This document shows, in pieces, positions 39,327 through 59,095 of a stretch of DNA of 64,000 bases. The notes under the pieces were generated by a model. It saw only the letters and a list, made by a program, of their open reading frames with translations. It did no database searches and was not told the DNA's origin. The stretch covers positions 7,307-71,306 of the forward strand of contig JAJFUK010000086.1 in the NCBI GenBank assembly GCA_021372435.1. The letters run 5' to 3'. Position numbers and translations under genes: made by a program. This DNA is from Actinomycetes bacterium (GTDB lineage Bacteria > Actinomycetota > Thermoleophilia > RBG-16-64-13). Every line of letters starts with the position of its first letter. The first letter of the stretch is position 1.

Positions 39327-39336
39327 CCGGGTCGCG

Positions 39337-41406
39337 ATGGTCGCGGAGCATCCTCTCACCCTCGGCACGGCGGGACACATCGATCACGGCAAGACCACTC
39401 TTGTCAAGGCCCTGACCGGACGCGACACCGACCGTCTTGAAGAAGAGAAGCGACGCGGCATCAGCATCGAGTTGGGCTTCGCCGAACTGGTGTTGCCGAG
39501 CGGGCGGCACATCAGCGTAGTGGACGTCCCCGGCCACGAGCGCTTCGTCAAGACCATGGTGGCCGGAGCCACGGGGATCGATCTGTTCCTGCTGGTGGTT
39601 GCCGCAGATGATGGCGTGATGCCCCAGACGCGCGAGCATCTGCGCATCATCGAACTCCTAGGGATCCCGGCGGGCGCGGTCGCGCTGACCAAGATCGATG
39701 TCGTCGACCAGGACTTCGTCGAATTGGCCGGTGCCGACGTCGAGGAGTTCTTGGCCACCACCAGGTATGTGGATGCGCCCATCGTGCCCGTGAGCGGGGT
39801 CACCGGGGAGGGGCTGCCTGCGCTGCTGTCCGTACTGGACGAACTGGGAGCCCGTGTGCCCCCTCGTGCGGCCTACCCTGCTACCCGCATGCCGGTGGAC
39901 CGGGTGTTCTCGCTGAGGGGGATCGGGACCGTGGTCACAGGGACCCTCTGGTCGGGTCGCATAGGCGCTGAAGATACGGTGGCCATTCTTCCTCCGCGCC
40001 ACGGCCGGGGCTCGAGTGCGCTTCGCGAGGTGCGGGTGCGCAGCGTCCAGGTGCACGACCGGGAAGTCGCCGAGGCGGTCGGGGGCCGGCGGGTCGCGCT
40101 GAACCTGACCGGAGTCGACCGGGACGAGGTAGTCCGGGGGCAGTGGGTCGTGAAAGACCCCGCCATCGAGCCTACGTATCTCGCCGATGTGCGTCTGACG
40201 CTCTTGACCGACGCCGGTGCTCCGCTCCCCCGGATCTCAAGAGTCCGGGTAGATCATGGGACCGCTGAGGTACTGGCCAAGGTGGTGCTGGCCGACCGGC
40301 AGATCCTCAACCCCGGGGGGTCGTGTTACGCTCAGGTCAGGTTCGATGAGCGGTGCCTGGTGTATCCGGGCGATCAGTTCATCGTCCGCTCGGTGACGCC
40401 CGTGACGACCATCGGCGGGGGCAGGGTGATCGATCCGGCGCCCCGCAAGCACAGCACCGGGCAGCATTGGCACGATCGGCTGGCCGTTCTGGAGGACGGG
40501 CGGCCGGAGGCGGTCGCCGCCCTCCTGCTCCAAGAATCGTTCCCGTCGGGCCCAGTCCGCGGGAGGTTTGAAACGAGTCCGTACCTGTGGCCGTTCACAC
40601 CGGAGGAGACCCGGGAGGCGGTCGTTGCCCTGCTGGCCGACGGCCGTGCCCTGGCGGTGGGAGCGGGCGTCGGGGGACCGGGGGGCGAGACTCGGTCTGG
40701 AGCAGTAGGCCCGAACGTCCGCCTGTTCCACGGTCCCTCTCTGCTCGCTCTTACCGACGCGGCGCTCACGGCGCTGCGTGCCAAGGCTGATGATGACCCG
40801 CTCGATCCCTATCTGACCCTGGGAGACCTACGGCGCGAGCTGGCCGGCGGGAGGGGATCCCCGGCTCTTGAAGTGGCTCTGGACCGCCTGCAGGATGCCG
40901 GCGAAGCCATCCGGTCCGAGCACGGGTACCGTTGGGCCGGAGCGGCAGTGGCCGCGCGGGGTGCACAGGCGGAGGTCGTTGAGCGTCTTCTGGAGCAGTT
41001 CAGCGCCGGCGCCGCCGGCCAGGGCCCGACCGGTAGAGGTGAAGTTCTCGGGAGCACGGCTGCCGTCGTGGCTTCAGGAGCCGCTGAGACGCCCAGTGTG
41101 ACCGCGGCGGCTGAAGCAGTAGGGCTCACCGTGGAGGCCGCTCAGAAGGTGATCGATGCATTGGTGCGACAAGGGCGGCTGGTCAGGGTGGGTGAAGACC
41201 TCTACTACCCGCCCGACCGGCTGGAGGCGCTCATCGGCCGCATCATCGTCGCGATGGAAGCTGCGGGGCAGGTCACGCTGGCCGAGGTCCGAGACCTCCT
41301 GGGGACATCGCGCCGATACTCGCAGGCCCTGCTGGAGCACATGGATTCCGAGGGCCTTACGCTGAGGGTGGGGGAGGCGCGGCGCCTGCGTCGCCGGCGC
41401 CGGTAG
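39337..41406 (+). CDS. selB: selenocysteine-specific translation elongation factor
   Basis: Start ATG 39337 lies 10 nt after the selA stop. Motifs: GTAGHIDHGKTTL, EEKRRGISIELGF, DVPGHERF, LTKID. The long C-terminal winged-helix region ends RRYSQALLEHMDSEGLTLRVG (SECIS-binding domain pattern). Confidence 0.92.
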   Translation: MVAEHPLTLGTAGHIDHGKTTLVKALTGRDTDRLEEEKRRGISIELGFAELVLPSGRHISVVDVPGHERFVKTMVAGATGIDLFLLVVAADDGVMPQTREHLRIIELLGIPAGAVALTKIDVVDQDFVELAGADVEEFLATTRYVDAPIVPVSGVTGEGLPALLSVLDELGARVPPRAAYPATRMPVDRVFSLRGIGTVVTGTLWSGRIGAEDTVAILPPRHGRGSSALREVRVRSVQVHDREVAEAVGGRRVALNLTGVDRDEVVRGQWVVKDPAIEPTYLADVRLTLLTDAGAPLPRISRVRVDHGTAEVLAKVVLADRQILNPGGSCYAQVRFDERCLVYPGDQFIVRSVTPVTTIGGGRVIDPAPRKHSTGQHWHDRLAVLEDGRPEAVAALLLQESFPSGPVRGRFETSPYLWPFTPEETREAVVALLADGRALAVGAGVGGPGGETRSGAVGPNVRLFHGPSLLALTDAALTALRAKADDDPLDPYLTLGDLRRELAGGRGSPALEVALDRLQDAGEAIRSEHGYRWAGAAVAARGAQAEVVERLLEQFSAGAAGQGPTGRGEVLGSTAAVVASGAAETPSVTAAAEAVGLTVEAAQKVIDALVRQGRLVRVGEDLYYPPDRLEALIGRIIVAMEAAGQVTLAEVRDLLGTSRRYSQALLEHMDSEGLTLRVGEARRLRRRRR

Positions 41407-41552: not shown

Positions 41553-41649
41553 GGAGCGGCTTTCGGTCTGGTGGCCGGCCCGGTCTTCAAAACCGGTGTT
41601 GGGGGGTAGGCCCCTCCAGGGTGGGTTCGATTCCCATGCCGCTCCGCCA
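41553..41649 (+). tRNA. selC: tRNA-Sec (anticodon UCA), CCA encoded
   Basis: GGAGCGGC...GCCGCTCC forms an 8-bp acceptor stem. The D-stem is 6 bp (UCGGUC/GGCCGG) with a 4-nt loop. The anticodon loop is CUUCAAA. A long variable arm (GGGGGG..CCCCUCC) and a 5-bp T-stem with UUCGAUU follow, then discriminator G plus CCA. This is the 8/5 bacterial tRNA-Sec geometry. Confidence 0.95.
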
Positions 41650-43063: not shown

Positions 43064-43993
43064 TCACGGTCGCGCGCGGATGATATCCACCGCCTCTGGC
43101 TTCACCGTGCCATTGTCCCGCGCCCGGCCCCTCGCCTCCCAGAGCACCAGCAGGCTCAGAGCCGTGACGACCATCACCATGCCCGCGATCTCCCAGGGGC
43201 TGAGCTCCTCGTTCAGTTGGAGCCATGAGGCCAACACGCCGACGACCGGAGTCCCGATCGTGCCGATACCGGCGACGTTCGCCGACAGCGCGCCCAGTAC
43301 GTACAGCCACAGGATGGAACCGAGGGCGGTTCCCAGCAGGATACTGTACGCCAGCGACCAGATGAAAGTGCCCGACCAGTGGATGCCGTCGCCTGGGATC
43401 AGGGCTCCCAACACCACCAGGGGGATCGAGCCGCAGAAGGTCGACCACGCCGTGAACGAGAGCAGATCGACCTCCTGTCGCATCCTGAGGACCTTCGCAA
43501 CGACCGCGCCTGCCGCGAAGCATACGGCCGCCGCCAGGGTCAAGAGGCTGCTGGACAGCCCACGCAGTCCCCAGGGCTCGATGATGAGCACGAGTCCCAC
43601 CAAACCGAGGCCCACGGACAGCCATTGACCTCCCCGTAGTCGCTCCCCCAGAAGCACCCAGGCGAGGATGAGCAGCCAGAACTGCCAGGTGTTGGCGAGC
43701 ATGGCGGTGTGTCCTGCCCCCCCTACCACCAGAGCGGCGGAGGTCAGGCCGGTGAAGGCCCCGCCCTGCATGATCCCCACAAAGGCCGTGAGCCTCAAAG
43801 CCTTGGGTCTGAGGGGACGGCCGGTGGCCGGGAGCAGGGCGAGTAGAAGGATACCCGCCGGAAGGCTGCGAAGGGCCGCGAACATGAAGGCGCTGCTCTC
43901 CATGATGCCCAGCTTGCTGGGTACCCAGGAATACCCCCAGATGAAGGGGAGGATCGCGAGCACCAAGACCGGGAGATAGCGAGTCGACCGCAC
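43064..43993 (-). CDS. EamA/DMT-family transporter
   Basis: 309 aa with 10 predicted TM helices and two EamA-like halves. Confidence 0.85.
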   Translation of the reverse strand: MRSTRYLPVLVLAILPFIWGYSWVPSKLGIMESSAFMFAALRSLPAGILLLALLPATGRPLRPKALRLTAFVGIMQGGAFTGLTSAALVVGGAGHTAMLANTWQFWLLILAWVLLGERLRGGQWLSVGLGLVGLVLIIEPWGLRGLSSSLLTLAAAVCFAAGAVVAKVLRMRQEVDLLSFTAWSTFCGSIPLVVLGALIPGDGIHWSGTFIWSLAYSILLGTALGSILWLYVLGALSANVAGIGTIGTPVVGVLASWLQLNEELSPWEIAGMVMVVTALSLLVLWEARGRARDNGTVKPEAVDIIRARP

Positions 43994-44287: not shown

Positions 44288-45397
44288 GTGAAGATCAAGG
44301 GTGCTGTGCTGCGGGAGGTCGATAAGCCGTACTCCTTCGAAGAGCTGGAACTCGACTCTCCCCATGCCAACGAAGTACTCGTCAAGTGGTTGTACACGGG
44401 CTACTGCCATAGCGATCTGAGCAACCTCAAGGGCCGGACGATGATGGCTCTGCCTCTGGTCGCAGGTCACGAGTGCGCGGGGCTGGTCGAAGCGGTGGGC
44501 GAAGGGGTGACCCAGGTCAAGAAGGGTGACCACGTGGTCGGCACCTGGATGGTCCCCTGCGGACAGTGCCCGGAGTGTAGGCGCGGTCTGGGCAATATCT
44601 GCTCGGGCAACTTCGGGCCCTTCGTGTCCGGAACCATGCTCGATGGGACCACCCGGATCAAGGATGCCAACGGCGAGCCCGTCCTTCACGGCAACTTCGT
44701 GTCGGGTTTCTCCGACTACACCGTCGTCCCCGAGGGCGGGGTGGTGCCCATACGCAAGGACATGCCGCTCGATTGGGCCTGCCTCCTGAGCTGTTGCGTC
44801 CCCACCGGTTGGGGAACCGTCACCAAGGCGGCCAATGTGCAGCCGATGGACAGGGTGGCCATCTGGGGGCTGGGGGGCGTCGGCCAGAACGTGCTTCGGG
44901 CGGCCAAAGTGCGCGGGGCCCATCCTTTGATCGCCGTGGATCTCGAAGAATCCCGGCGGGAGAAGGCGCTGGCGCTCGGCGCAAGCCACTTCATCTGCAA
45001 TGCGAAGGAGGATCCGATCCCTCAGATCCTGGACCTGACCGGCGGAGGGTGTGACTATGTGTTCGAGGCCGCCGGACAGGTCGGTGCGACCGAGCAGGCC
45101 TGGTGGGCGCTGCGTCCGGCCGGCAAACTGATGATGGTCGGCATCATCTCCCAGCATGAGCCGGCGAGGCTGCCTCTTACCTTCTCGGTGTTTCACCAGA
45201 AGGGCGTGATAGGCACCCTTTATGGGTCGGTCGCGGTGCAGGACGAGATCCCTAAGCTGGTCGAGCAGGCGATGAACGGCGAGTTGATGATCGACACGAT
45301 CATAGAGGGGTACTTCAAGTTCGAGGAGCTCAACGATATCGCGGAGAAGATGGAGAACCGGCAATTGGGCGGGCGCTGGATCTGCAGGTTGGACTGA
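44288..45397 (+). CDS. Zn-dependent alcohol dehydrogenase (mycofactocin-associated nicotinoprotein-type candidate)
   Basis: GTG start. Motifs: GYCHSD, PLVAGHECAG, and structural-Zn cysteines CGQCPECRRGLGNIC. Lies immediately upstream of mftA on the same strand. Confidence 0.9.
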   Translation: MKIKGAVLREVDKPYSFEELELDSPHANEVLVKWLYTGYCHSDLSNLKGRTMMALPLVAGHECAGLVEAVGEGVTQVKKGDHVVGTWMVPCGQCPECRRGLGNICSGNFGPFVSGTMLDGTTRIKDANGEPVLHGNFVSGFSDYTVVPEGGVVPIRKDMPLDWACLLSCCVPTGWGTVTKAANVQPMDRVAIWGLGGVGQNVLRAAKVRGAHPLIAVDLEESRREKALALGASHFICNAKEDPIPQILDLTGGGCDYVFEAAGQVGATEQAWWALRPAGKLMMVGIISQHEPARLPLTFSVFHQKGVIGTLYGSVAVQDEIPKLVEQAMNGELMIDTIIEGYFKFEELNDIAEKMENRQLGGRWICRLD

Positions 45398-45492: not shown

Positions 45493-45594
45493 ATGGGTCC
45501 CGTCTCTGAGGCGATCGGTGCGGACGGGCCGGAGATCCTCGAGGAGATCGAGGTCGAGGACCTGGCTGTCGACGGTATCTGTGGAGTCTACTGA
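45493..45594 (+). CDS. mftA: mycofactocin precursor peptide
   Basis: 33-aa ORF, below the ORF-track cutoff: MGPVSEAIGADGPEILEEIEVEDLAVDGICGVY. The acidic leader and C-terminal DGICGVY match the conserved IDGMCGVY core. Lies directly upstream of mftB/mftC. An alternative in-frame TTG start at 45469 lies 5 nt after GGAGG. Confidence 0.85.
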   Translation: MGPVSEAIGADGPEILEEIEVEDLAVDGICGVY

Positions 45595-45865
45595 GACGGC
45601 CACGCATGCCGTCGAGGCGGCCGAGTACCTTGTGCCCCATTGGGTCCGGGTACGGCGGGAGGACTTCGGGATCCTCTTCTACGACGCCCGGTCGGCCAGG
45701 CTGACGTTCGTCGCTTCGGGCGACAGCCTGGAGCCGCCGCCGTTCACGGGTACCCGGCGTGCGCTCCGTGTCGCCACGCTTGACGGAAGCCGACAGGCCG
45801 CCGTGGCGCGACTGCTCCAGGACCTCGTCAGGAGAGGTCTGATCATTGCCGTCGAGCCTGACTAG
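45581..45865 (+). CDS. mftB: mycofactocin chaperone (PqqD-like RRE protein)
   Basis: HWVRVRREDFGILFYDARSARLTFV matches the MftB W.L...V..R.E.FG.L.Y pattern. There is no ATG. GTG 45581 (overlapping the mftA end) or GTG 45632 are possible starts. Confidence 0.78.
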   Translation: MESTETATHAVEAAEYLVPHWVRVRREDFGILFYDARSARLTFVASGDSLEPPPFTGTRRALRVATLDGSRQAAVARLLQDLVRRGLIIAVEPD

Positions 45866-46874
45866 CACCCGCCTGCGCGCGCCGGTCAACGTCACGTGGG
45901 AGATCACCGGGGCCTGCAACCTGCGGTGCCGCCATTGCCTGTCGGCCGGGCTACGGACGCGCGGCCACGGTGAACTCGACCTTGCTCACTGTCGAGAACT
46001 CATCGACGAACTGGCCCGTATGCAGGTCTTTCAAGTGAACTTCGGGGGAGGGGAGCCGTTCTTGCGGGCCGACTTCCTCGACATCCTGCGCTGTGTCCAT
46101 GAACGAGGCATCACGGCCTGCGTCAGCACCAACGGGACGGTGCTGGACGACGCCCTAGTGGACGAGCTCCTGGCGATGGCGCCCGTCTATCTGCAGGTGA
46201 GTCTGGACGGGGCCCGAGCCGAGACCAATGACACCATCCGGGGAGATGGGACCTTCGAGCGCATCCTTGCCGGGATAGAGCTACTTTCCAGGCGGGGCTA
46301 TCCCGATCTCAGCCTCAATATGGTAGTGACCCGCCTCAACGTTTCCGAGATCGGTGAGTTCGACCGGCTTGCCCGCCACTACGGGGCCAAGACGCGATTA
46401 TCCCGGTTCCGTCCTTCGGGGAGGGCGTGTGGCGTCTGGGAGGACTATCGGCTGGACAGGGAGCAGCTTCTGCAGCTGTCGGCGTTCCTGGGAGACCACC
46501 CGGAGATCCTCACCGGTGACTCGTTCTTTGCTCTTACGCCCGACGGCCGGCGCGCGCTGGGCCTGAACATGTGTGGGGCGGCCAAGATGACCTGCGCCGT
46601 GGCGCCGGACGGCGGGGTGTATCCCTGCGCGTTCTTGTGTGCGCCTGAGTTTCTCGCCGGCAATGTGACCTCCGCGCCCCTTGGGCAGATCTTCGGCTCC
46701 TCACCGGTATTCGAGAGGTTCCGGACGCTCGAGGTAGAGATCTGTCGCGCCTGCGATCGTTTTTCCCTCTGTCACGGGGGATGTCCGGCGATAGCGTGTT
46801 TTCTTACCGAGTCGATGGATCTCCCCGACCCGGAGTGCCTGCGCGCGGTGGTGTCCGGGAAGGAGGTGGCGTAG
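45846..46874 (+). CDS. mftC: mycofactocin radical-SAM maturase
   Basis: TTG start. WEITGACNLRCRHC (CxxxCxxC), GGGEPF, and SPASM cysteines (CGAAKMTCAVAPDGGVYPCAFL, CRACDRFSLCHGGCPA). Confidence 0.92.
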   Translation: MPSSLTSTRLRAPVNVTWEITGACNLRCRHCLSAGLRTRGHGELDLAHCRELIDELARMQVFQVNFGGGEPFLRADFLDILRCVHERGITACVSTNGTVLDDALVDELLAMAPVYLQVSLDGARAETNDTIRGDGTFERILAGIELLSRRGYPDLSLNMVVTRLNVSEIGEFDRLARHYGAKTRLSRFRPSGRACGVWEDYRLDREQLLQLSAFLGDHPEILTGDSFFALTPDGRRALGLNMCGAAKMTCAVAPDGGVYPCAFLCAPEFLAGNVTSAPLGQIFGSSPVFERFRTLEVEICRACDRFSLCHGGCPAIACFLTESMDLPDPECLRAVVSGKEVA

Positions 46875-46877
46875 ACC

Positions 46878-48827
46878 ATGCAGTTCCCTCATCTGTTCAG
46901 CCCTCTGCGGATAGGCCGGGTGACCGTGCCGAACCGGATCTCGTTCTCGGCGCATCTGACGAATCTGTCGAAGGACGGACTTCCGACCGAGCGGCTCGTG
47001 AGCTACTTAGCCGCCCGCGCCCGGGGCGGCGCGGGCCTGATCATCACAGAGGAGCAGTCGGTGCACCCTACCGACCGTGCCTACGAGCACCTCATGGAAG
47101 CCTTCCGGCCGGAGATCATCCCGGGGTACAAGCGGCTTACGCGGGCGATCCATGCCTATGACACACGCATCTTCGCCCAGATCAACCACAACGGGCAGCA
47201 GTGCAGCGGGGTTTTGTCGCGGCTGCCGGTGTGGGCCCCGTCGGCCGTTCCCGACGTCATGTACCGGGAGACTCCCAAAGTCATGGAGCTCGAGGACATC
47301 CGGGAGGTCGTCGCTCATTTCGCGCTGGGGGCGATCCATGTCCGCGAAGGCGGATTCGACGGGGTGGAGCTCCAATTCGGCCACAGCTCCCTGGCCCGGC
47401 AGTTCATGTCGCCGCTTACGAACTTCCGCACCGATGAGTACGGAGGCGGGTTCGACAACCGCATGCGGTTCCCTCTGGAGGTGATCGCGGCGGTCCGTCA
47501 AGCGGTGGGTAGCGACTTCACCGTGGGCGTGCGCCTCTGCGCCGACGAGATGATCCCCGGAGGGCTGACGCTTGAAGACGCCAAGCAGATCGCGCAGCGG
47601 TTGGAGGCGACCGGGGAGCTCGACTACTTCAATCTCACTCTCGCGACGTTCTACAACCTCTACCTGGTCGGGGGGCCGATGCACCTGCCCTTGGGCTACG
47701 CCGTCCCCCTGGCCGCAGGCGTCAAGCAGGTGACGGCTCTGCCGGTGTTCACCGCCGGACGCATCAACGACCCGGCTTTGGCCGAGCGGATATTGGCTGA
47801 TGGACAGGCCGACATGATCGGTGTGGTGCGGGGCCAGATCGCCGACCCCGACTTCTCGAGCAAGGCCCGGGAGGGCCGCACCGACGAGATCCGCTACTGC
47901 ATCGCCTGTAATCAGAACTGCTACGGGCGCGTGGGCCTGAATCACACGATAGGATGCGTCCAGAACCCGGCGGTGGGTCACGAGGACACCGAGGGTGAGT
48001 GCCACCTCCGACCGACTCTGCGTAAGAAGCGGGTCATGGTGGTGGGTGGAGGCCCGGCCGGCATGTGGGCGGCCAAGATAGCCTCTCTCCGCGGGCACGA
48101 CGTCACGTTGTACGAAAAGTCCCAGGACCTGGGCGGCCAGGTCCTGCTGGCGGCGAAAGGAGCCGGACGCGACGAGTTTGGAGCGATAGCACGCAACGAG
48201 CGGAACCAGCTGGCCCGTCTTCGTGTGCCCGTGGAACTCGGCGTCGAGGTCACGCCGGAGTTCGTGCTCGACCGCGCCCCAGACGCGGTGATCGTGGCCA
48301 CCGGCTCGCGCCCCAAATCCTGTCCGGTGGCCGGAGCCGATGGGCCCAACGTCTTCAACGTATGGCAGGTGCTCGGCGGTGAGGCGCAACTCGGCGAGCG
48401 GGTGCTCCTCATCGACTACGACGGCCACCACCAGGCGACCGCCACAGCCGAGTTCATCGCCGACCTGGGGAAGACGGTGCACGTGGTCACCTCCGCGCTC
48501 TTCGTCGGTTCCGACCTGGGTCCATCGCAGGATCTCTACCTGTCACGCCAGAGGCTGCTCCAGAAAGGCGTCACCCTCACCGCCGATTTCGCGGTCATGG
48601 AGATCAAAGGCCTGGACGTCCATGGCTTCGACGTGTACTCGAACGTGTGGAGTGTCATCTCGGGCTACGACAGCATCGTGACCGCCATGGGCAATGATGC
48701 CTGCGACGGGCTCTATTTCGCGCTCAAAGGCAGGGTACCGGAGATTGTGCGGGTGGGAGACTGTGTCGCGCCCAGGAAGGTCGACATGGCCATCCTCGAA
48801 GGCTACAGGGCCGGGAAGCGCGTGTGA
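46878..48827 (+). CDS. FadH/OYE-family FMN + 4Fe-4S + FAD/NAD(P) oxidoreductase (2,4-dienoyl-CoA-reductase/TMADH architecture)
   Basis: 649 aa. OYE-like TIM barrel (RIGRVTVPNRI, INHNGQQ, GFDGVELQFGH), the CIACNQNCYGRV...C cluster motif, then VVGGGPAGMWAA Rossmann. A FadH/OYE family has been described as mycofactocin-associated (from memory, not checked). Confidence 0.88.
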   Translation: MQFPHLFSPLRIGRVTVPNRISFSAHLTNLSKDGLPTERLVSYLAARARGGAGLIITEEQSVHPTDRAYEHLMEAFRPEIIPGYKRLTRAIHAYDTRIFAQINHNGQQCSGVLSRLPVWAPSAVPDVMYRETPKVMELEDIREVVAHFALGAIHVREGGFDGVELQFGHSSLARQFMSPLTNFRTDEYGGGFDNRMRFPLEVIAAVRQAVGSDFTVGVRLCADEMIPGGLTLEDAKQIAQRLEATGELDYFNLTLATFYNLYLVGGPMHLPLGYAVPLAAGVKQVTALPVFTAGRINDPALAERILADGQADMIGVVRGQIADPDFSSKAREGRTDEIRYCIACNQNCYGRVGLNHTIGCVQNPAVGHEDTEGECHLRPTLRKKRVMVVGGGPAGMWAAKIASLRGHDVTLYEKSQDLGGQVLLAAKGAGRDEFGAIARNERNQLARLRVPVELGVEVTPEFVLDRAPDAVIVATGSRPKSCPVAGADGPNVFNVWQVLGGEAQLGERVLLIDYDGHHQATATAEFIADLGKTVHVVTSALFVGSDLGPSQDLYLSRQRLLQKGVTLTADFAVMEIKGLDVHGFDVYSNVWSVISGYDSIVTAMGNDACDGLYFALKGRVPEIVRVGDCVAPRKVDMAILEGYRAGKRV

Positions 48828-49909
48828 ACCGGGCCGCCGACAGGGAACAGAAGCGCGGCGTTGCCGCGGGCGGCGAGGCCGGCGACGGGGTGGAGACGGC
48901 GCCGGCCTCCGGAGGCCTCCTTGTACTTGTGGAACCGCCGGACGCCGAAGACGGGCCGGGCCGCTTTGTTCTTGCGGCCGAGGGGACTAGGTTGGCACGC
49001 TTACTCGAGGGGCCGCTCCACCTTGTCACGTGGCCCGAGGGCGCGGATCTCGATCTGGAGGCGCTCGCCACGGCGGCGGCCGGCCTGGCGGAGCGCACGC
49101 GGCCGGCGGCCGTGCTTTTGGCCGACACCGACACCGGCCGTCAGTTGGCGCCGATGATCGCGTGCCGGCTGGGTTCTGGGTGCGTGACTGCGTGCAGCGA
49201 CGTGCTGGTGCGGGATCCGGCTGCGCCGGCGGGCCGGGCAGGGCGGCCGGTCTGCATGACGCCCGGAAGGGAGAGGACCCTCGTGTTCGTAAAACCCGTC
49301 TACGGCGGCGGGCTGGAGCAGGAGATCGAACCTCTGCACGACACCATACCGGTCGTCGCCCTTGATCTTACCGGGATGGATGCCCCGGAGACCGGCGCGG
49401 CTGCCCTTCCGGTTGCTGGGGTCCTGCAGGTGGACGTTACCCCCACTCCTCGGGTTCCTCGGGTCCGGCGGCTCGAGATGATCCGACCAGACCCGCGTTC
49501 CGTGGACCTGGTCCACGCGCGACGGATCGTGACGGCGGGGGCGGGCAGCGCCGGGGATGCGCTTCTGGCCGCCGTGGGTGAACTTGCCGAACTTCTCGAG
49601 GGCTCGGTGGGGGCTACTCGACCGGTGGTGGACGATGGCCGCCTTCCCAAAGAACGGCTGATCGGACAGACGGGCCGTACCGTGGCCCCGGACCTCTATG
49701 TCGCTCTCGGCCTGTCCGGATCGCCTCACCACCTCGCGGGAGTGAAACGGGCGGAGCGCATCCTGGCCATCAACAAGGACGGAAGCGCTCCCATCTTCCA
49801 CTTCTCCGATGTGGGCTACGTAGCCGATCTGGAGATGGTGCTTCCTGCTTTGGTGAAGAAGATCAAGGAGTGGCGGGATGCCTCCGGCGGCCCCGACGAC
49901 TCTGGGTAG
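48824..49909 (+). CDS. fixB: electron transfer flavoprotein alpha subunit (FixB-like)
   Basis: GTGA overlap with the upstream stop. The C-terminal FAD domain reads GATRPVVDDGRLPKERLIGQTGRTVAPDLYVALGLSGSPHHLAG...ILAINKD. Confidence 0.88.
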   Translation: MNRAADREQKRGVAAGGEAGDGVETAPASGGLLVLVEPPDAEDGPGRFVLAAEGTRLARLLEGPLHLVTWPEGADLDLEALATAAAGLAERTRPAAVLLADTDTGRQLAPMIACRLGSGCVTACSDVLVRDPAAPAGRAGRPVCMTPGRERTLVFVKPVYGGGLEQEIEPLHDTIPVVALDLTGMDAPETGAAALPVAGVLQVDVTPTPRVPRVRRLEMIRPDPRSVDLVHARRIVTAGAGSAGDALLAAVGELAELLEGSVGATRPVVDDGRLPKERLIGQTGRTVAPDLYVALGLSGSPHHLAGVKRAERILAINKDGSAPIFHFSDVGYVADLEMVLPALVKKIKEWRDASGGPDDSG

Positions 49910-51242
49910 CGACCGCGGCGCCTTCGACGCCATCGTGGTAGGGGCGGGTCCGGCGGGCACGAGCGCGGCGCTTGCGCTTGCCCAGAAGGGGTTCAGGGTC
50001 CTCCTGCTGGAACGGGGCGACTACCCGGGGGCCAAGAACATGTTCGGCGGGATGATGGCTTACTGTCCTGCGCCGGAAGAGCTGGTTCCCGGCTTCTGGG
50101 AGCGGGCCCCGTGGGAGCGGGCGGTGACCAAGCGTGTACTGTCGGTCGTGGGCGGGGGCTCCAGCACGTCCCTGGTCTTCCAAGCCGCCTCTGACTCCGG
50201 CCGGCCGTCGGCGGGCGGTGGTTCCACCTCCGATCAAACGCTGACCGGGTTCACGCTCTTTCGTCCCCAGTTCGACCGCTGGTACGCGGAGCAGGCCGTC
50301 GCCCAGGGAGTGACCCTGCTCACCGGCTGTCGCGTGGAGGGACTCCTGCTGCATGACGGAGCGGTCTGGGGTGTGCGTATCGCCGGTGCTGAAGACGTAG
50401 TCGAAGCCCCTGTGGTCGTGGCCTGCGACGGGACGCTCTCGTTGGTGGCGCAGCAGGCCGGTCTGCACACAGGAGTGAGGGCAGAGCATGTGGCCCTAGG
50501 GGTTCGGGCCCTCTACGCGCTCAGCGAAGAAGGGATCGACGAACGGTTCGCACTCGACGGCCGGGAGGGCGCCACCTACGAATTCCTTGGCTGCACCGAG
50601 GGGATCCGGGGCGGGAGCTTCATGTATACGCAGACCGAGACGGTCTCCGTAGGTATGGTGCTCCACCTTGACTCGCTCAAAGCGCGCGGGGTGCCTCCCT
50701 ATGGACTCTTGGAGCGCTTCGTTGCATCCCCGCCGGCGGCCTCACTGCTCAGGGCAGCGCGTTTGGTCGAGTACTCGGCCCACCTCCTCCCGGAGGCGGG
50801 CACGCGCATGGTGCCTCGTCTGTCCGCAGCCGGACTGCTTGTCGCCGGAGACGCGGCCGGTCTCTGCTATACGAACGGCCTCATCCAGGAAGGGATGAAC
50901 CTGGCCATGACGTCCGGTCTGCTGGCCGGACGCGTGGCCGCCGAAGCCCTAGCGGAGGGCGATCTCAGCGCGCGTCGTCTGGCCCGGTACGCGGGTGAAT
51001 TGGAGCGGAGCTTTGTCCTCAAGGACATGAAGACCTTCGACCGGGCCGTCGACTTCATGCGCGAAGACCGGCTGTTCACCGTGTATCCGCGGGTCATCAG
51101 CGCGCTGATGGAAGACCTCTACCGTTCCGACGGCACGCCGAAGGAAAAGATAGGGCCGCTTGCCCGCCGCGCTCTCAAGGGCGAGTTGCCGGTGCGTGCC
51201 TTGATCGCCGATCTCTTCCGAGGAGGGAGGGGCTACCTGTGA
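49878..51242 (+). CDS. fixC: FAD-dependent ETF:quinone-type oxidoreductase (FixC-like)
   Basis: FDAIVVGAGPAGTSAALALAQKG, GAKNMFGG, and C-terminal AGDAAG. Confidence 0.88.
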   Translation: MPPAAPTTLGSDRGAFDAIVVGAGPAGTSAALALAQKGFRVLLLERGDYPGAKNMFGGMMAYCPAPEELVPGFWERAPWERAVTKRVLSVVGGGSSTSLVFQAASDSGRPSAGGGSTSDQTLTGFTLFRPQFDRWYAEQAVAQGVTLLTGCRVEGLLLHDGAVWGVRIAGAEDVVEAPVVVACDGTLSLVAQQAGLHTGVRAEHVALGVRALYALSEEGIDERFALDGREGATYEFLGCTEGIRGGSFMYTQTETVSVGMVLHLDSLKARGVPPYGLLERFVASPPAASLLRAARLVEYSAHLLPEAGTRMVPRLSAAGLLVAGDAAGLCYTNGLIQEGMNLAMTSGLLAGRVAAEALAEGDLSARRLARYAGELERSFVLKDMKTFDRAVDFMREDRLFTVYPRVISALMEDLYRSDGTPKEKIGPLARRALKGELPVRALIADLFRGGRGYL

Positions 51243-51514
51243 TAGTGGACGACCTGTTCGATCTGGTGAGCTACCGGATCCATCCCGAGGCGCACATCGT
51301 CGTCGATGCGGAGGGGTGTAAGGACTGCGCGCATCGGGCCTGTACCTTCTCCTGCCCGGCCCGCTGCTATACGTGGAGCGAGGAGAGAGCCCGGGTGGAG
51401 TTCGCCTATGAGGCCTGTCTCGAATGCGGTACCTGCCTGCTCGTGTGCGACCGGAAGGCCGTCGACTGGCACTATCCTCCCGGGGGATACGGTGTGCGCT
51501 TCCGGCTCACATAG
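51239..51514 (+). CDS. fixX: ferredoxin-like protein FixX
   Basis: 91 aa. Motifs: CKDCAHRACTFSCPARCY, CLECGTCLLVC, and a trailing HYPPGGYGV. Confidence 0.85.
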   Translation: MIVDDLFDLVSYRIHPEAHIVVDAEGCKDCAHRACTFSCPARCYTWSEERARVEFAYEACLECGTCLLVCDRKAVDWHYPPGGYGVRFRLT

Positions 51515-51523
51515 GAGCGCCCG

Positions 51524-52534
51524 ATGAGGATCCTGGTCCTTCTGGGAATCGGGGCAGACGTCCGCGTCTCTGTGGAGCGCGATCCACGCAGCGGGCGCGT
51601 ACGCGCCGAACGGCTCGTGCGCGAGATCGATCCGGACTGCGGTCGCGCACTGGATCTGGCTCTGCGCCTGAAGTGCGCCCACCCGGGAACGGAGCTGACG
51701 GCCCTGCACTTTGGGCCCCCGAGTGGGGAGTCCCGGCTTCGGCACGCTCTGGCCCAGGGTGTCGACCGGGCGGTGCGCATATGGGATGAAGAAGTCACCG
51801 GGGCGCGGGCGGCCGGCAAGGCAGTCATCCTGGCCGCGGCCGCCGAAGCGGCCGGCTTTGACCTGATCTTAGCCGGAGCGACCGGTGTCGTCGAAGCCGG
51901 CGGTCAGCTCGGCGTGTTGGTGGCGGCGCACCTGGGAGTCCCCTGCGTGACCCAGGTGGTCGATATGGCCGCTGCAGAGGGCCCGGATGCCTCGGCCGGG
52001 CGGCAAAGCCTGGAGATGATGCGCGGCCTGGATCGGGGCTTCCGCGAGCGGGTGCTGGTCTCGTTGCCGGTCGTCGCGACGGTGTCGTGTCTCGGGGCAG
52101 TCCCGGTGACCACGGCGAAGACGCTCGACACGACCCACGCGGCGGTGACCGCCCGTGCGCTTCTGGCGGTCCAAGATCAGGAGATCGCCACGTGGGACCT
52201 GGCCGATCTAGGCGTGCCGCTCGATGGGGTGCGACGTGCCGATGGGTCTCTCGTCTATGGGCGGCCGCGTCCCCGGCGTCCCCGGCTGCGCCCCCTTGCT
52301 GCTCCCGACCCGGCGCTTCCCGCGTTCGACCGTATCCTCAAGCTGATCGAGGGGTCCGTCAAACGGCGGGAAGGCCGCGTCGTCCGGCGCTCCGCGGACG
52401 CGATCGTCGACGAGATATTCAGGCTTCTCCATGATGAAGGCTGGCTGGATCACCTTCGTCCCGGCGCGCAGCGTGTCCGTCTTGCGGCCCCAGGCGACGA
52501 CCGGGAGACTCCTGAGCCCGGCGACGGCCGATGA
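51524..52534 (+). CDS. fixA: electron transfer flavoprotein beta subunit (FixA-like) with C-terminal extension
   Basis: MRILVLLG..., IDPDCGRALDLALRLK, LRHALAQGVDRAVRIWD, DLILAGATGV..GQLGVLVAAHLGVP. About 75 extra C-terminal residues include a Pro/Arg linker. Confidence 0.8.
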   Translation: MRILVLLGIGADVRVSVERDPRSGRVRAERLVREIDPDCGRALDLALRLKCAHPGTELTALHFGPPSGESRLRHALAQGVDRAVRIWDEEVTGARAAGKAVILAAAAEAAGFDLILAGATGVVEAGGQLGVLVAAHLGVPCVTQVVDMAAAEGPDASAGRQSLEMMRGLDRGFRERVLVSLPVVATVSCLGAVPVTTAKTLDTTHAAVTARALLAVQDQEIATWDLADLGVPLDGVRRADGSLVYGRPRPRRPRLRPLAAPDPALPAFDRILKLIEGSVKRREGRVVRRSADAIVDEIFRLLHDEGWLDHLRPGAQRVRLAAPGDDRETPEPGDGR

Positions 52535-53991
52535 TCCCTGTAGCCTATTGGCTGCGCGAATCGGTACGGATCGAGCCCGCCGGCGCCGGTCGCCGGCGCG
52601 TAGTGTCCGAAGCGCCCCTCACAGTCTTGACGATCAATCATGCCGCAGCGGAGCTCCTGGAAGTGACGCGCCGAGGCGCCTCGGTCGCCGACCTGGCCGC
52701 TGCGTTCGACGCGGACCAGGAACGGATCTTTCTGCTGTGCGAGCGCTTCCGTCGCCGCGGGATTCTCCAGGTCCGCCGGGCGCCGGTCGACGCCGGCTTT
52801 TCACCCACGGTGACCGTGATCGTTCCCACACAGGACCGCGTGGACGATCTGGACGATTGTCTCCAAGCTCTCAGCCGCCTGGACCATCCCCGCGACCGGC
52901 TCGAGGTGATCGTGGTGGACGACGGCTCGACGGATCCCTCGGCAGTCGCCGACGTCGTTGCTCGTCACGACGCCCGCCTTCTGACCAACGAGTGCAATCA
53001 CGGAGCTCCGTACTCCCGCAACCGGGCGGCCCGGGTGGCGGCGGGCGAGATACTGGCCTTCATCGACAGCGACTGCGTGCCCGGCCGTGGGTGGCTTGGG
53101 GAACTCATCCCCTACTTCTGCTGGGACAAGGTCGGAGCGGTGGGTGGCCGCACCGTCAACTATTACACCGGGTCGCGACTCGACCGGTACGAGGAGGTCT
53201 CGTCTCCGCTGGATATGGGCAAGGACCTGATCATCCAAGCGCGCGGGCAGAGCACCTTCTACGTGCCCACGTGCAACCTGCTCGTCCGCCGTTCCACGTA
53301 CGAGGATCTGGGGGGCCTACGAGAGGATCTGCTCGTGGGCGAAGATGTGGACTTCTGCTGGCGTCTGCGGGCGAACGGCCTCTATCTTGTGTATGCTCCG
53401 GAGGGTCTGGTGCGGCACAAGCACCGGGACCGGCTGGGCGCGATGCTACGGCGGCGGGCAGAGTACGGCACTTCCGAGGCGACCCTCTACTCGCTCCATC
53501 GCGACAAGCGCAAACGCTTTCCGGTATCCCCCGCTCCGGCGGCCACTGTGGGCCTTTTCTCTACGGCACTGCTTACACGTAAGGTGCAGTTGCTCCTGCC
53601 CTGCCTGCTCCCTCCGTTGGCGGACTGCGTCCGCCGCGGCCTGAAACTTCGCAGGGAGGCGATCGGAGCCCCGGCTCGAGCGGTTTGTGTTTCGGTGGCG
53701 CGCGGTCATCTTTCCATGGTCTACTTCGTCTTCTTTCACCTCGTTCGATACTACTTGGCGCCTCTGGCTGCCGCCGGCCTGTTTGTTCCTGGGATCCGGC
53801 TACTGGCCGCCACTGCCGTCCTTTACTCGGGAGGGGTCGATTACGTCACTCGAAGACCTCGGATGACCTACCCTGTGTACCTCGCGTACTACGTGGCAGA
53901 GCACGCCGCCTATCAGGCGGGCGTCATGGCGGGCTGCGTGCGGTCAAGGACCTTTCGCTGCTACCTCCTTGGGCGCAGCGGGACGAGATAG
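52531..53991 (+). CDS. mftF: mycofactocin-system glycosyltransferase candidate (GT2 with N-terminal extra domain and C-terminal TM region)
   Basis: 486 aa. GT2 core (VTVIVPTQDR, VIVVDDGSTD, FIDSDCVP, VGEDVDFCWR) preceded by a ~95-aa domain and followed by hydrophobic helices, the size and layout of MftF. Last gene of the mft operon. The assignment is context-based. Confidence 0.72.
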   Translation: MIPVAYWLRESVRIEPAGAGRRRVVSEAPLTVLTINHAAAELLEVTRRGASVADLAAAFDADQERIFLLCERFRRRGILQVRRAPVDAGFSPTVTVIVPTQDRVDDLDDCLQALSRLDHPRDRLEVIVVDDGSTDPSAVADVVARHDARLLTNECNHGAPYSRNRAARVAAGEILAFIDSDCVPGRGWLGELIPYFCWDKVGAVGGRTVNYYTGSRLDRYEEVSSPLDMGKDLIIQARGQSTFYVPTCNLLVRRSTYEDLGGLREDLLVGEDVDFCWRLRANGLYLVYAPEGLVRHKHRDRLGAMLRRRAEYGTSEATLYSLHRDKRKRFPVSPAPAATVGLFSTALLTRKVQLLLPCLLPPLADCVRRGLKLRREAIGAPARAVCVSVARGHLSMVYFVFFHLVRYYLAPLAAAGLFVPGIRLLAATAVLYSGGVDYVTRRPRMTYPVYLAYYVAEHAAYQAGVMAGCVRSRTFRCYLLGRSGTR

Positions 53992-57045: not shown

Positions 57046-57141
57046 GCAGGGTCCTTTCGTACCAGCGCCTGGGGGATCCGGGGGGTCGCCGGTCTGGAGG
57101 AGGCGTCATGCCCTCGCACCGACGACCCGGAGGGTCTAGCG

Positions 57142-57150
57142 ATTGTACTA
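57142..57150 (-). promoter_or_regulatory. candidate -10 element TAGTACAAT upstream of MFS gene
   Basis: Same 9-mer as 8466-8474, ~95 nt upstream of the ATG at 57045. It is embedded in the small palindrome GCGAT TGTACTAC ATCGC. Confidence 0.3.
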
Positions 57151-57194
57151 CATCGCCGTTTGCCTGCGCCGCCGCCCGGTTGTACCTTGGTCGG

Positions 57195-58169
57195 ATGACC
57201 TCCGAACCGACCACCCCGTCGACGCCGGGCGCGTCGCCCCAGCAGGGCGCATCCTCCGGAGCAACGCCGGTCACGACTCGGCGCGACTCTTTGACCGCTG
57301 TGGCGCTCGTGGTGGTTGTGGGCCTGCTCATGCAGGCGGGCTCGGCGGTGGCCGTCATGGTGATCGATTCGGTCGGAGTGGTCGAGGCCTTGTGGCTGCG
57401 GACCGCCCTTGCGGCCATCATCCTCACGGCGGCCCGTCCCCGCCTGGCCCGTTTGCCCAAGAAGGGCGACCGTCTTTTGGTCATCGCTCTGACTATCAGT
57501 CTGGTGAGTATGAACCTCTGCTTCTACGAGGCCATCAGCCGGGCCGCCGTGGGGATCGTGGTGGCGGTGGAATTCCTGGGTCCCCTGGGGGTGGCGGTGG
57601 CCGGTTCGCACCGGCCGTTGGACCTGCTGTGGGTGGTGCTTGCAGGAGGTGGGGTGACGCTCCTCGCCAGGCCGAGCGGCTCGGTCGGAGTGACGGGGCT
57701 GCTGTTCGCACTGGGAGCCGCCGCCTGCTGGGCGGCGTTCATCGTCCTCGCGAAGAGGACGGTCGCTCGGATCGAACCGCTGCGGGCGACCATCCTGATG
57801 CTCATCGGAGCGGCGGTCATCATCACGCCCATCTGGGTGGCTACCGGGGTCAAGATCGTAGGCTACGGCCGGGCGCTTCTTCTCGGTTTGGCAGTGGCCC
57901 TCCTGTCGTCGGCGCTTCCCTATTTCCTGGAACTGGCCGCCATCAAACGGGTGCGCGCCTCTACGTACAGCGTCTTACTCAGCATCGAGCCGGCCATCGC
58001 GGCTCTGATGGGATTCCTCATACTCTCACAGCGTCTGGCCTATCGGGATATCGGCGCGATCTTGGCGATCATCGCGGCGGCTGCGGGAGCCAGTTGGGCC
58101 GCTACGACGGAAAGAGGTCTCCGGAGGCGGCCGCGCCCGCCCGATGAGCGCTGGAGGGCGGGCTCCTGA
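57195..58169 (+). CDS. EamA/DMT-family transporter (RhtA-like)
   Basis: Start ATG 57195 (MTSEPTTP). 10 TM helices. Motif: LCFYEAISRAAVGIVVAVEFLGPLGVAV. Confidence 0.8.
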   Translation: MTSEPTTPSTPGASPQQGASSGATPVTTRRDSLTAVALVVVVGLLMQAGSAVAVMVIDSVGVVEALWLRTALAAIILTAARPRLARLPKKGDRLLVIALTISLVSMNLCFYEAISRAAVGIVVAVEFLGPLGVAVAGSHRPLDLLWVVLAGGGVTLLARPSGSVGVTGLLFALGAAACWAAFIVLAKRTVARIEPLRATILMLIGAAVIITPIWVATGVKIVGYGRALLLGLAVALLSSALPYFLELAAIKRVRASTYSVLLSIEPAIAALMGFLILSQRLAYRDIGAILAIIAAAAGASWAATTERGLRRRPRPPDERWRAGS

Positions 58170-58213: not shown

Positions 58214-59095
58214 GTGGCTGCTCTGGCGGGCCAGTCCGTGTTTCTCGGCTACAACTGGGTGGTCATGAAAGTGGGTCTGGAGTACTCAGACCCGTGGCCT
58301 TTTACAGCGCTTCGCACCACTCTGGGGGCCGTGGCCCTTTTCATAGTGCTGATTGTTCTTCGCCGGCCGTTAGGTCCCCGCCGCCCCCTTGCCACTATGC
58401 TCCTCGGCCTGCTGCAGACGACGGGCATGATCGGGCTGCTCATGTGGGCGCTCGAGACAGGGGCGGCAGGCAGGGTGTCGGCCCTCGTCTACACGATGCC
58501 GTTCTGGTCGCTGATGCTGGGCCGGGCGTTCTTGGGAGAACGCATGCAAGGACTTCACTGGTTCGCCGCGGGTCTGTCGCTTGCCGGGCTTGTGTTGGTC
58601 CTGGACCCACTGCATCTGGGCGGCAGCCTCCTCAGCAAAGCTCTGGCCATCGCCTCAGGCATCTCGTGGGCGGCGAGCGCCGTCGTCGCCCGGTGGATGA
58701 ACAGGCAGGGTCCCTCGGATGTGATCAACCTCACCGCTTGGCAGATGCTCTACGGGAGCGTGCCTCTCATCGTGATCGCCGTGCTCGTGCCGGCCCGGCC
58801 GATCAAGTGGTCCGGCCAGTTCATCGCCGCGTTGGCCTACAATGTGATCCCCGCGACCGCCATCTCCTGGGTCTTGTGGCTGTTTGTCCTCCAGGTCCTG
58901 CCCGCGGGGATCGCAGGCATCAGCACTCTCGCCACTCCAGTCATCGGGATAGTCTCGGCCGTCATTCAATTGGGAGAACGGGTCTCGCCGATGGAGGCCG
59001 CGGGGATGGCCTGTATTCTGGCGGCTTTGCTCGTGCTGGTAGTGCCCGGTCTACCGCGGCGGGGTAAGAACTCGTCTCAGAAGCAAGAGGAGTGA
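58214..59095 (+). CDS. EamA/DMT-family transporter
   Basis: 293 aa with a GTG start, 10 TM helices and two EamA halves. Confidence 0.82.
   Translation: MAALAGQSVFLGYNWVVMKVGLEYSDPWPFTALRTTLGAVALFIVLIVLRRPLGPRRPLATMLLGLLQTTGMIGLLMWALETGAAGRVSALVYTMPFWSLMLGRAFLGERMQGLHWFAAGLSLAGLVLVLDPLHLGGSLLSKALAIASGISWAASAVVARWMNRQGPSDVINLTAWQMLYGSVPLIVIAVLVPARPIKWSGQFIAALAYNVIPATAISWVLWLFVLQVLPAGIAGISTLATPVIGIVSAVIQLGERVSPMEAAGMACILAALLVLVVPGLPRRGKNSSQKQEE

Follow-up and report, generated by a model that had tools for sequence, protein, structure and literature searches.

The 64,000-nt stretch of DNA analysed here (the window) comes from an Actinomycetes bacterium (assembly GCA_021372435.1, contig JAJFUK010000086.1, positions 7,307 to 71,306) and carries a mycofactocin (mft) operon in which five redox genes lie between mftC and mftF. 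These genes, coding for a FadH/OYE-type flavo-iron-sulfur enzyme (OYE2), the alpha and beta subunits of an electron transfer flavoprotein (ETF), and the FixC and FixX proteins, fill the slot where mftD and mftE sit in canonical operons. Among the clusters examined, none combines this block with mftD, and a cluster without mftD always came with the block. The comparative data point more strongly to a replacement of MftD than to a replacement of MftG, and OYE2-EtfA-FixC-FixX-EtfB is put forward here, tentatively and with a confidence that stops somewhat short of an even chance, as a putative substitute for MftD that would work through ETF and without O2 and that may reoxidise mycofactocinol as well.

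To our knowledge, all that is experimentally known about mycofactocin comes from aerobic mycobacteria, in which MftD depends on O2 and MftG connects the cofactor with respiration. Operons with OYE-ETF-FixCX genes in place of mftD, mftE, and mftG form a large set that includes the Geobacteraceae, the Syntrophorhabdales, the Dehalococcoidia, and the Thermoleophilia, as well as haloarchaea and many Streptomyces, Amycolatopsis, and Saccharopolyspora. If the keto-amide core, cofactor recycling, or both are the work of this module, the functioning of mycofactocin in anaerobic alcohol metabolism would be explained, and the pathway of a ribosomally made, post-translationally modified peptide (RiPP) would gain a new class of biosynthetic enzyme.

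The association of mft genes with OYE and ETF genes is already catalogued (TIGR03996/TIGR03997, NF038209, and TIGR04503) and is not a new discovery. At E <= 1e-100, 6610 database proteins match the OYE2 of the window, many of them already named for the TIGR03997 family by JGI or NCBI, and PGAP and JGI names for the system stand on hundreds of proteins. A literature search retrieved no paper combining mycofactocin with either "electron transfer flavoprotein" or FixABCX. An earlier examination of this DNA from its letters alone (the sequence-only reading) knew of no experimentally described system of this kind, and the window feature is a further member of a database-catalogued, experimentally untouched mycofactocin variant.

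The block lies in the mftD-mftE slot

Compared with the canonical mftABCDEF operon (plus mftG and mftR) of Mycobacterium and related genera, the window has orthologous mftA (CGVY), mftB, mftC, and mftF genes, and both systems are tied to nicotinoprotein-type alcohol dehydrogenases. MftD (FMN_dh), MftE (creatininase), MftG (GMC), and MftR, on the other hand, are not found in the 64 kb, and the five redox genes occupy the D-E slot instead. Searches of the window by tblastn with references from annotated plasmids, together with scans of some 45 further ORFs (open reading frames), gave no match to mftD, mftE, mftR, or MftM, and neither the scan of ~45 ORFs nor tblastn with two MftG references gave a match to mftG. 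The lack of an MftG-like gene had been pointed out in the sequence-only reading, which overlooked that mftD and mftE are missing as well. There is no homology to MftD (TIGR03966, FMN_dh) or MftG (GMC oxidoreductase) in the window, and the relation of the block to either protein would be one of functional analogy only.

Relatives of the window operon were drawn from a scan of one genome per species, which returned 171 OYE2 relatives, and the best 80 of these were analysed (L001-L080); an exact-sequence look-up with the window OYE2 itself matched no contig. Within their available sequence, these 80 loci and the window show no tblastn match to any of the MftD (four), MftE (five), or MftG (two) references. 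Conversely, no OYE, etfA, fixC, fixX, or etfB gene was found in 80 metagenomic loci fetched by their alignment to MftD, 20 of which also contain mftC. The least biased sample was obtained by searching PLSDB with MftC. Among the 12 plasmids that carry mftC, the block occurs without MftD on eight (six from Streptomyces and those of Haloterrigena and Halolamina), and MftD occurs without the block on four (those of Streptomyces sp. NBC_00080, Tsukamurella, M. chubuense, and Thermomicrobium roseum), a split with a Fisher p of 0.002 over non-independent lineages.

Block-type operons of aerobic actinomycetes have the order mftR-mftA-B-C-OYE1-OYE2-etfA-fixC-fixX-etfB-SDR-mftF-mftE (SDR, short-chain dehydrogenase/reductase). 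The full string is present in Saccharopolyspora spinosa and Amycolatopsis cynarae, and in Carbonactinospora it can be followed as far as fixX, where the gene listing ends; none of these three block-type clusters has an FMN_dh gene. The catalogued actinobacterial clusters (Streptomyces sp. NBC_00334 plasmid, S. spinosa, A. cynarae) share with the window the order mftA-B-C, OYE2, etfA, fixC, fixX, etfB, mftF and the absence of mftD and mftG, but they add the OYE1 paralogue, the SDR gene between etfB and mftF, mftE after mftF, and mftR, none of which the window has. Both clusters of S. erythraea carry mftD and lack the block, and the species does not appear among the 30 Saccharopolyspora OYE2 entries inspected, which is suggestive but not proof. 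These two S. erythraea clusters (GCA_018141105.1; L171 and L172) are complete, each has its own mftA, and their gene orders differ (C-D-x-E-SDR-F and C-D-SDR-F-E). The chromosome of Saccharopolyspora sp. ASAGF58 carries two clusters (L175, at 4.78 Mb, and L173, at 7.32 Mb), one of the mftD type and one of the block type, and its block-type copy has an IS4 transposase where mftC should be. Because both cluster types occur in this organism, the exclusivity of block and mftD holds per cluster and not necessarily per genome.

The sequence-only reading had looked to mftG rather than mftD, asking whether the block anticorrelates with mftG. All block-bearing organisms covered by the supplement of Graca et al. 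(2025) are indeed without mftG by its scoring (Geotalea uraniireducens, G. pickeringii, Haloterrigena, Halolamina, S. yangpuensis, S. spinosa, and Saccharopolyspora sp. ASAGF58). The same supplement, however, scores T. roseum and S. erythraea likewise as mftG-negative (Graca et al., 2025), and the clusters of these two species have mftD and lack the block. Hence, the block is not simply an alternative to MftG. Loss of mftG does not require the block, and the absence of mftD, not that of mftG, is its sharper correlate.

Organization and conservation of the operon

The gene string was derived from the ORF listing, a third-position G+C filter, and NCBIfam/Pfam scans; the G+C content of the window is ~65%. 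The co-directional plus-strand string mftA-mftB-mftC-[FadH/OYE-etfA-fixC-fixX-etfB]-mftF is tightly coupled as a single operon. It opens with the precursor peptide gene mftA (45493-45594; MGPVSEAIGADGPEILEEIEVEDLAVDGICGVY), the product of which ends in ...DGICGVY with the canonical C-terminal CGVY core, followed by the mftB chaperone gene (~45632-45865, with an uncertain start codon; TIGR03967, 40.1 bits, above the cutoff of 33) and by mftC, encoding the radical SAM/SPASM maturase (45846-46874; TIGR03962, 340 bits against a cutoff of 265; Pfam Radical_SAM and SPASM). Only 3 nt separate the mftC stop from the ATG of OYE2 (46878-48827; 649 aa; Oxidored_FMN and Pyr_redox_2), and the next junctions are closer still, with GTGA overlaps of 4 nt joining OYE2 to etfA (48824-49909) and fixC (49878-51242) to fixX (51239-51514). 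A 9-nt gap leads from fixX to etfB (51524-52534), which shares an ATGA overlap with the glycosyltransferase gene mftF (52531-53991; TIGR03965, 362 bits against a cutoff of 280). Gene identities, coordinates, the coupling of OYE2 to etfA, the order B-C-X-A, and the overlap of etfB with mftF had all been given correctly from the letters alone, and the profile matches bear them out.

This organization is shared by the relatives of the window. The 80 loci analysed belong to Thermoleophilia/Gaiellales, Syntrophorhabdales, Thermodesulfobacteriota, Dehalococcoidaceae, Goldiibacteriota, and Geobacteraceae/Desulfuromonadales. All seven large genes are present in 63 loci, 62 of which have the window order mftC-OYE2-etfA-fixC-fixX-etfB-mftF, and mftA gives tblastn matches at the same position in 44 of these 63 complete loci. 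Where enough flanking sequence is available, mftC lies upstream of OYE2 in 71/72 loci and the full etfA-fixC-fixX-etfB-mftF set lies downstream in 58/58, so the proposal that the FadH-ETF block is a genuine part of mft operons stands. The junctions are conserved as well, with a 1- or 4-nt overlap of OYE2 and etfA in 63/72 related loci and 4-nt overlaps of fixC with fixX and of etfB with mftF in 55/73 and 47/64, respectively. Chance cannot explain these conserved stop/start overlaps, and the nine genes are inherited as if they were a single unit. Embedding of the block between biosynthetic genes through overlapping stop and start codons is seen in four phyla and in archaea.

The OYE2 flavoenzyme

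OYE2 reaches 934.6 bits against TIGR03997 ("mycofactocin system FadH/OYE family oxidoreductase 2"), above the curated cutoff of 793.15, with residues 5-648 aligned to profile positions 1-644 of 645, and its place directly after mftC agrees with the context, within or beside a mycofactocin cluster, that this family describes. The closest solved structures are, in order, 2-naphthoyl-CoA reductase (NCR, 6qkg; 320 bits), FadH (272 bits), histamine dehydrogenase (212 bits), and trimethylamine dehydrogenase (TMADH; 209 bits). The protein is laid out as an FMN barrel (PF00724), a C341-x2-C344-x3-C348...C360 cluster motif, an FAD/ADP Rossmann fold with GGGPAG, and a third domain without GxGxxG; the nucleotide could be ADP or FAD, between which the sequence does not distinguish. 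OYE2 hence has the three-domain FMN, [4Fe-4S], and ADP/FAD architecture of TMADH and histamine dehydrogenase (2tmd, 1o94, 3k30), including the Cys4 cluster and the lack of an NAD(P)H glycine loop in domain 3.

Conservation over the 80 orthologues follows the same lines. Residues H26, H104, Q166, H169, and S171 are invariant in 80/80, D513, D515, and G516 are each conserved in 79/80, and H517 is conserved in 78/80. Where FadH has its NADPH loop (GCGGIG), OYE2 has a conserved IDYDGHH, of which DYDGHH is the aligned part; the counterparts in histamine dehydrogenase (YDDDHYY) and TMADH (LNADTYF) are similar to it. Neither of these two enzymes uses NAD(P)H; both reduce ETF or a similar acceptor, and TMADH is the textbook ETF-reducing enzyme. 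His26 and His169 of OYE2 occupy the positions of His29 and His172 of TMADH. An ETF is the likely acceptor of OYE2 as well. The Tyr that donates a proton at the FMN site of ene-reductases (Tyr166 in FadH, and the Tyr of NCR and OYE) aligns with the invariant Ser171, so that OYE2 lacks both this donor and the C-terminal NADPH motif of FadH and the ene-reductases. The likeness to TMADH and histamine dehydrogenase nevertheless amounts to only ~210 bits, below that to NCR or FadH. Cys30 of TMADH, which forms the 6-S-cysteinyl FMN, aligns with Leu27 in 79/80 orthologues, and the aromatic substrate bowl of TMADH is not conserved. Taken together, the missing NAD(P)H loop, the Tyr-to-Ser replacement, and the invariant His residues suggest that OYE2 is a dehydrogenase-like member of its family with a protein redox partner, and not a TMADH orthologue.

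That partner is probably the adjacent ETF, from which electrons would pass on to FixCX and quinone, a partnership to which gene adjacency and the overlap with etfA point. OYE2 relatives outside mft clusters (~38% identity) were checked for adjoining ETF genes, and none was found, which adds no support for ETF coupling. As a separate observation on the iron-sulfur site, the second cluster cysteine (Cys344, window positions 47898-47900) is replaced by Asp in 37 of the 80 orthologues, implying an Asp-ligated or a 3Fe-4S cluster in part of the family.

The ETF and FixCX subunits

The four subunit types of FixABCX (Azotobacter) and EtfABCX (Thermotoga maritima, 7koe), namely ETF alpha, ETF beta, FixC, and FixX, are all encoded in the window, although in the order etfA(fixB)-fixC-fixX-etfB(fixA), here and in all related loci, instead of fixA-fixB-fixC-fixX. 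The window further differs from these systems in its degenerate ETF-beta nucleotide site and in having an operon-borne flavo-iron-sulfur dehydrogenase as the probable donor in place of free NADH. The FixB-like EtfA has a well-conserved electron-transfer FAD domain (PF00766, 88 bits), and its nearest PDB entries are 5ol2_A and 7koe_B (122 and 108 bits, against 67 bits for W3A1 ETF). Relative to W3A1 ETF, therefore, the alpha subunit is much closer to the bifurcating type (5ol2, 7koe), the beta subunit is so only modestly, and the window adds FixCX. The FixC/ETF:quinone oxidoreductase flavoprotein aligns over its full length with the FixC of T. maritima EtfABCX (7koe_C, 216 bits) and scores 300 bits against PRK10157 (subfamily cutoff 610). 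FixX is a 2x[4Fe-4S] ferredoxin with Fer4 Pfam domains (PRK15449, E = 5.5e-12).

NF038209 (mft_etfA) is the top NCBIfam match for EtfA, at 127.2 bits, and TIGR04503 (mft_etfB) the second for EtfB, at 65.4 bits, but the curated cutoffs of these families (240 and 200 bits) are not reached. Since the best and second-best profile matches and the genomic context coincide while the scores stay below the cutoffs, the ETF of the window is a divergent sister branch of NF038209/TIGR04503 rather than a member by the curated rule.

The FixA-like EtfB is very divergent. Its only Pfam match is PF01012 (86 bits), it scores 64 bits in a PDB search, in which the best-scoring alignments end near residue 155, and structural homology covers residues 2-188 at most. 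At 336 aa, the protein exceeds most solved ETF-beta chains (252-265 aa) and the median length of its own family (294 aa). The C-terminal extension of ~75 aa that had been noticed from the letters alone is real, but it consists of two parts, namely a module at aa 261-300, which is the best-conserved stretch of the protein and is present in all 64 orthologues, and a lineage-specific tail formed by the last ~25-40 aa. The stretches that align with the GADTWAT and AIDGDTAQVG motifs of CarD and C. difficile EtfB read GARAAGK and VVEAGGQLG in the window and vary over the 64 orthologues. Because these AMP/bifurcating-FAD motifs are degenerate here and variable in the family, electron bifurcation, which the sequence-only reading had offered as an option, is doubtful and finds no support. 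Sequence rules that separate bifurcating from non-bifurcating ETFs were looked for in one paper (PMC6085437), which did not supply them.

A model for the function of the block

In M. smegmatis, deletion of mftD abolishes all mycofactocins, while deletion of mftE is partly rescued by other peptidases (PMC7491314). A self-contained cluster can therefore drop mftE, but it needs the job of MftD to be done. The MftD step is described as aerobic in a further report (PMC8406134), and most block-bearing lineages are anaerobes. In the model tentatively favoured here, the substrate of OYE2 would be the cyclised Val-Tyr core, either as AHDP or while still attached to the peptide. The enzyme would oxidise carbon 3 (C3) of this core by abstracting a hydride, and hydrolysis of the resulting imine would give the alpha-keto amide of premycofactocin, all without O2. 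The two electrons would travel from FMN through the [4Fe-4S] cluster to the FAD of EtfA, and on through the FixX clusters and the FAD of FixC to menaquinone. TMADH and histamine dehydrogenase oxidise a C-N bond, releasing an amine or ammonia, and this is also the chemistry of MftD. Furthermore, the same module may reoxidise mycofactocinol, the outlet role proposed from the letters alone. Such a dual role is conceivable because mycofactocinol differs from AHDP only by OH in place of NH2 on the same carbon; it would justify a dedicated quinone route and would reconcile substitution for MftD with the outlet. A more ambitious version, in which OYE2 does the work of MftD, MftG, and, in window-type clusters, MftE in one, appears improbable. 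In that version, the keto group would be made without O2, in the window-type cassette by oxidative N-C(alpha) cleavage of the peptide-attached core, and OYE2 would then reoxidise the reduced cofactor in place of MftG. If correct, it would mean that a cofactor derived from a ribosomal peptide is wired straight into the menaquinone pool of anaerobes.

Several observations weigh against a substitution for MftD. OYE2 is overall nearer to the reductases NCR and FadH than to the amine dehydrogenases, and it is missing the Cys for covalent FMN. A four-gene quinone route looks excessive for low-flux biosynthesis and would be better suited to cofactor recycling at high flux. The block is in use in aerobic Streptomyces and in haloarchaea too, so that avoidance of O2 cannot be the sole reason for it. 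Many metagenomic MftD loci have no mftC within flanks of up to 10 kb per side (L092, L113, L114, L130, L144, L150, L155), and with mftD so often apart from the other pathway genes, arguments from its absence in the neighbourhood are limited. For the window organism, the absence of mftD is established within the 64 kb and not genome-wide, and the ASAGF58 genome carries both cluster types. Lastly, the window-type cassette has no replacement for MftE, and a search for a conserved peptidase among the conserved flanking families yielded only aldehyde:ferredoxin oxidoreductase (AOR), Fe-dependent alcohol dehydrogenase, NUDIX, ThiF-like, MFS, and histidine kinase proteins.

A different account would make the block purely an electron outlet, with OYE2 acting only on mature mycofactocinol, electrons leaving through ETF and FixCX to quinone, and premycofactocin made by another enzyme. 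The job done would then be that of MftG, as in the MftG-independent relay of the sequence-only reading. This account is in keeping with the lack of a GMC/MftG gene in the window and in every block-type cluster, with the mftG-negative scores of block-bearing organisms and the additional mycofactocinol oxidases inferred by Graca et al. (2025), with the quinone route indicated by the 7koe_C match, and with neighbours that suit high-flux alcohol oxidation, namely mycofactocin-type alcohol dehydrogenases upstream and AOR after mftF. Under this account, however, no block-type cluster would have a gene for the essential MftD step. A recycling module, moreover, need not sit wedged among biosynthetic genes, nor own a set of mftA, B, C, F, and E genes as it does in ASAGF58. 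T. roseum and S. erythraea, which lack mftG, have mftD and no block, and S. erythraea makes both mycofactocin redox forms, oxidised MMFT-2 and reduced MMFT-2H2 having been detected in it (Ellerhorst et al.). The path from OYE2 through ETF to FixCX and quinone is hence the probable part of the relay as first proposed, while its tie to mftG is overtaken by mftD as the sharper correlate, and a pure outlet, though the main rival, is regarded as less likely than a substitution for MftD.

The flow of electrons might also be reversed, with a FixABCX-like and possibly bifurcating ETF feeding OYE2 as a FadH- or NCR-like reductase of a mycofactocin intermediate or substrate, or supplying low-potential reductant to the radical SAM enzyme MftC. 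The nearest solved relatives of OYE2 are reductases, and EtfA, EtfB, and FixC find their best matches in the bifurcating complexes 5ol2, 6fah, and 7koe, but OYE2 has lost the Tyr proton donor of ene-reductases, the bifurcating-FAD/AMP motifs of ETF beta are not conserved, and known mycofactocin biosynthesis needs no reductive step. The supply of electrons to MftC was considered and rejected, as mftD-type clusters function without any such supply and the swap of mftD and block would be left unexplained. An input role therefore seems very unlikely. Slightly less plausible still is a co-located catabolic enzyme that oxidises or reduces some common metabolite, such as an amine, an enoyl- or acyl-CoA, or a bile-acid-like compound, and merely shares its regulation with mycofactocin-dependent alcohol metabolism. 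Plasmid relatives at ~38% identity do lie among genes for amine or aromatic catabolism and not among mft genes, and some members bear generic names such as 2,4-dienoyl-CoA reductase, N-methylproline demethylase, or DgcA. Nonetheless, mftC and the complete ETF-FixCX-mftF set accompany OYE2 with almost no exception, the unit is embedded by overlapping codons between biosynthetic genes across four phyla and archaea, and no conserved substrate-specific gene, such as one for a CoA ligase or a transporter, stands alongside.

Neighbouring genes

A Zn-dependent alcohol dehydrogenase gene lies upstream of mftA, outside the block proper (44288-45397, plus strand), and its product is likely a mycofactocin-dependent nicotinoprotein partner; its best NCBIfam match is TIGR03989 (N,N-dimethyl-4-nitrosoaniline (NDMA)-dependent alcohol dehydrogenase/Rxyl_3153 family), at 306 bits and under the cutoff of 440. 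A homologue is found upstream of mftA in 27 related loci, and Fe- and Zn-dependent alcohol dehydrogenases are conserved upstream neighbours in general. In 26 loci, a tungsten-type AOR gene directly follows mftF (e.g., 16966-18720 in L020), which suggests a pathway from alcohol to aldehyde to acid around the cofactor, and these conserved neighbours fit an alcohol-oxidation locus. A NUDIX gene (NAD+ diphosphatase-like) also recurs beside block-type mft clusters (L040, 7576-8217, and 24 other loci; L169, 3496-4398; L175, 659-1156), and "NADH pyrophosphatase" is among the top co-occurring genes in Rhodococcus (Haft, 2011).

Three DMT/EamA-family transporter genes surround the mft locus of the window (43064-43993 on the minus strand, and 57108-58169 and 58214-59095 on the plus strand), and one such gene also adjoins the alcohol dehydrogenase gene in close relatives (L001, L002, L035). 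Further downstream, two adjoining genes at 60339-63760 encode a 690-aa protein, in which a NuoG-like iron-sulfur domain is joined to a GltD/NADPH-glutamate-synthase-like flavoprotein, and a 449-aa NuoF-like protein that has a ferredoxin tail, a pair that resembles a soluble, possibly bifurcating, NAD(P)H-linked oxidoreductase module. Just upstream of the mft locus, the window has a complete selenocysteine insertion set, comprising selA (37701-39326), selB (39226-41406), and tRNA-Sec (41553-41649), and the presence of all three indicates that the organism makes selenoproteins.

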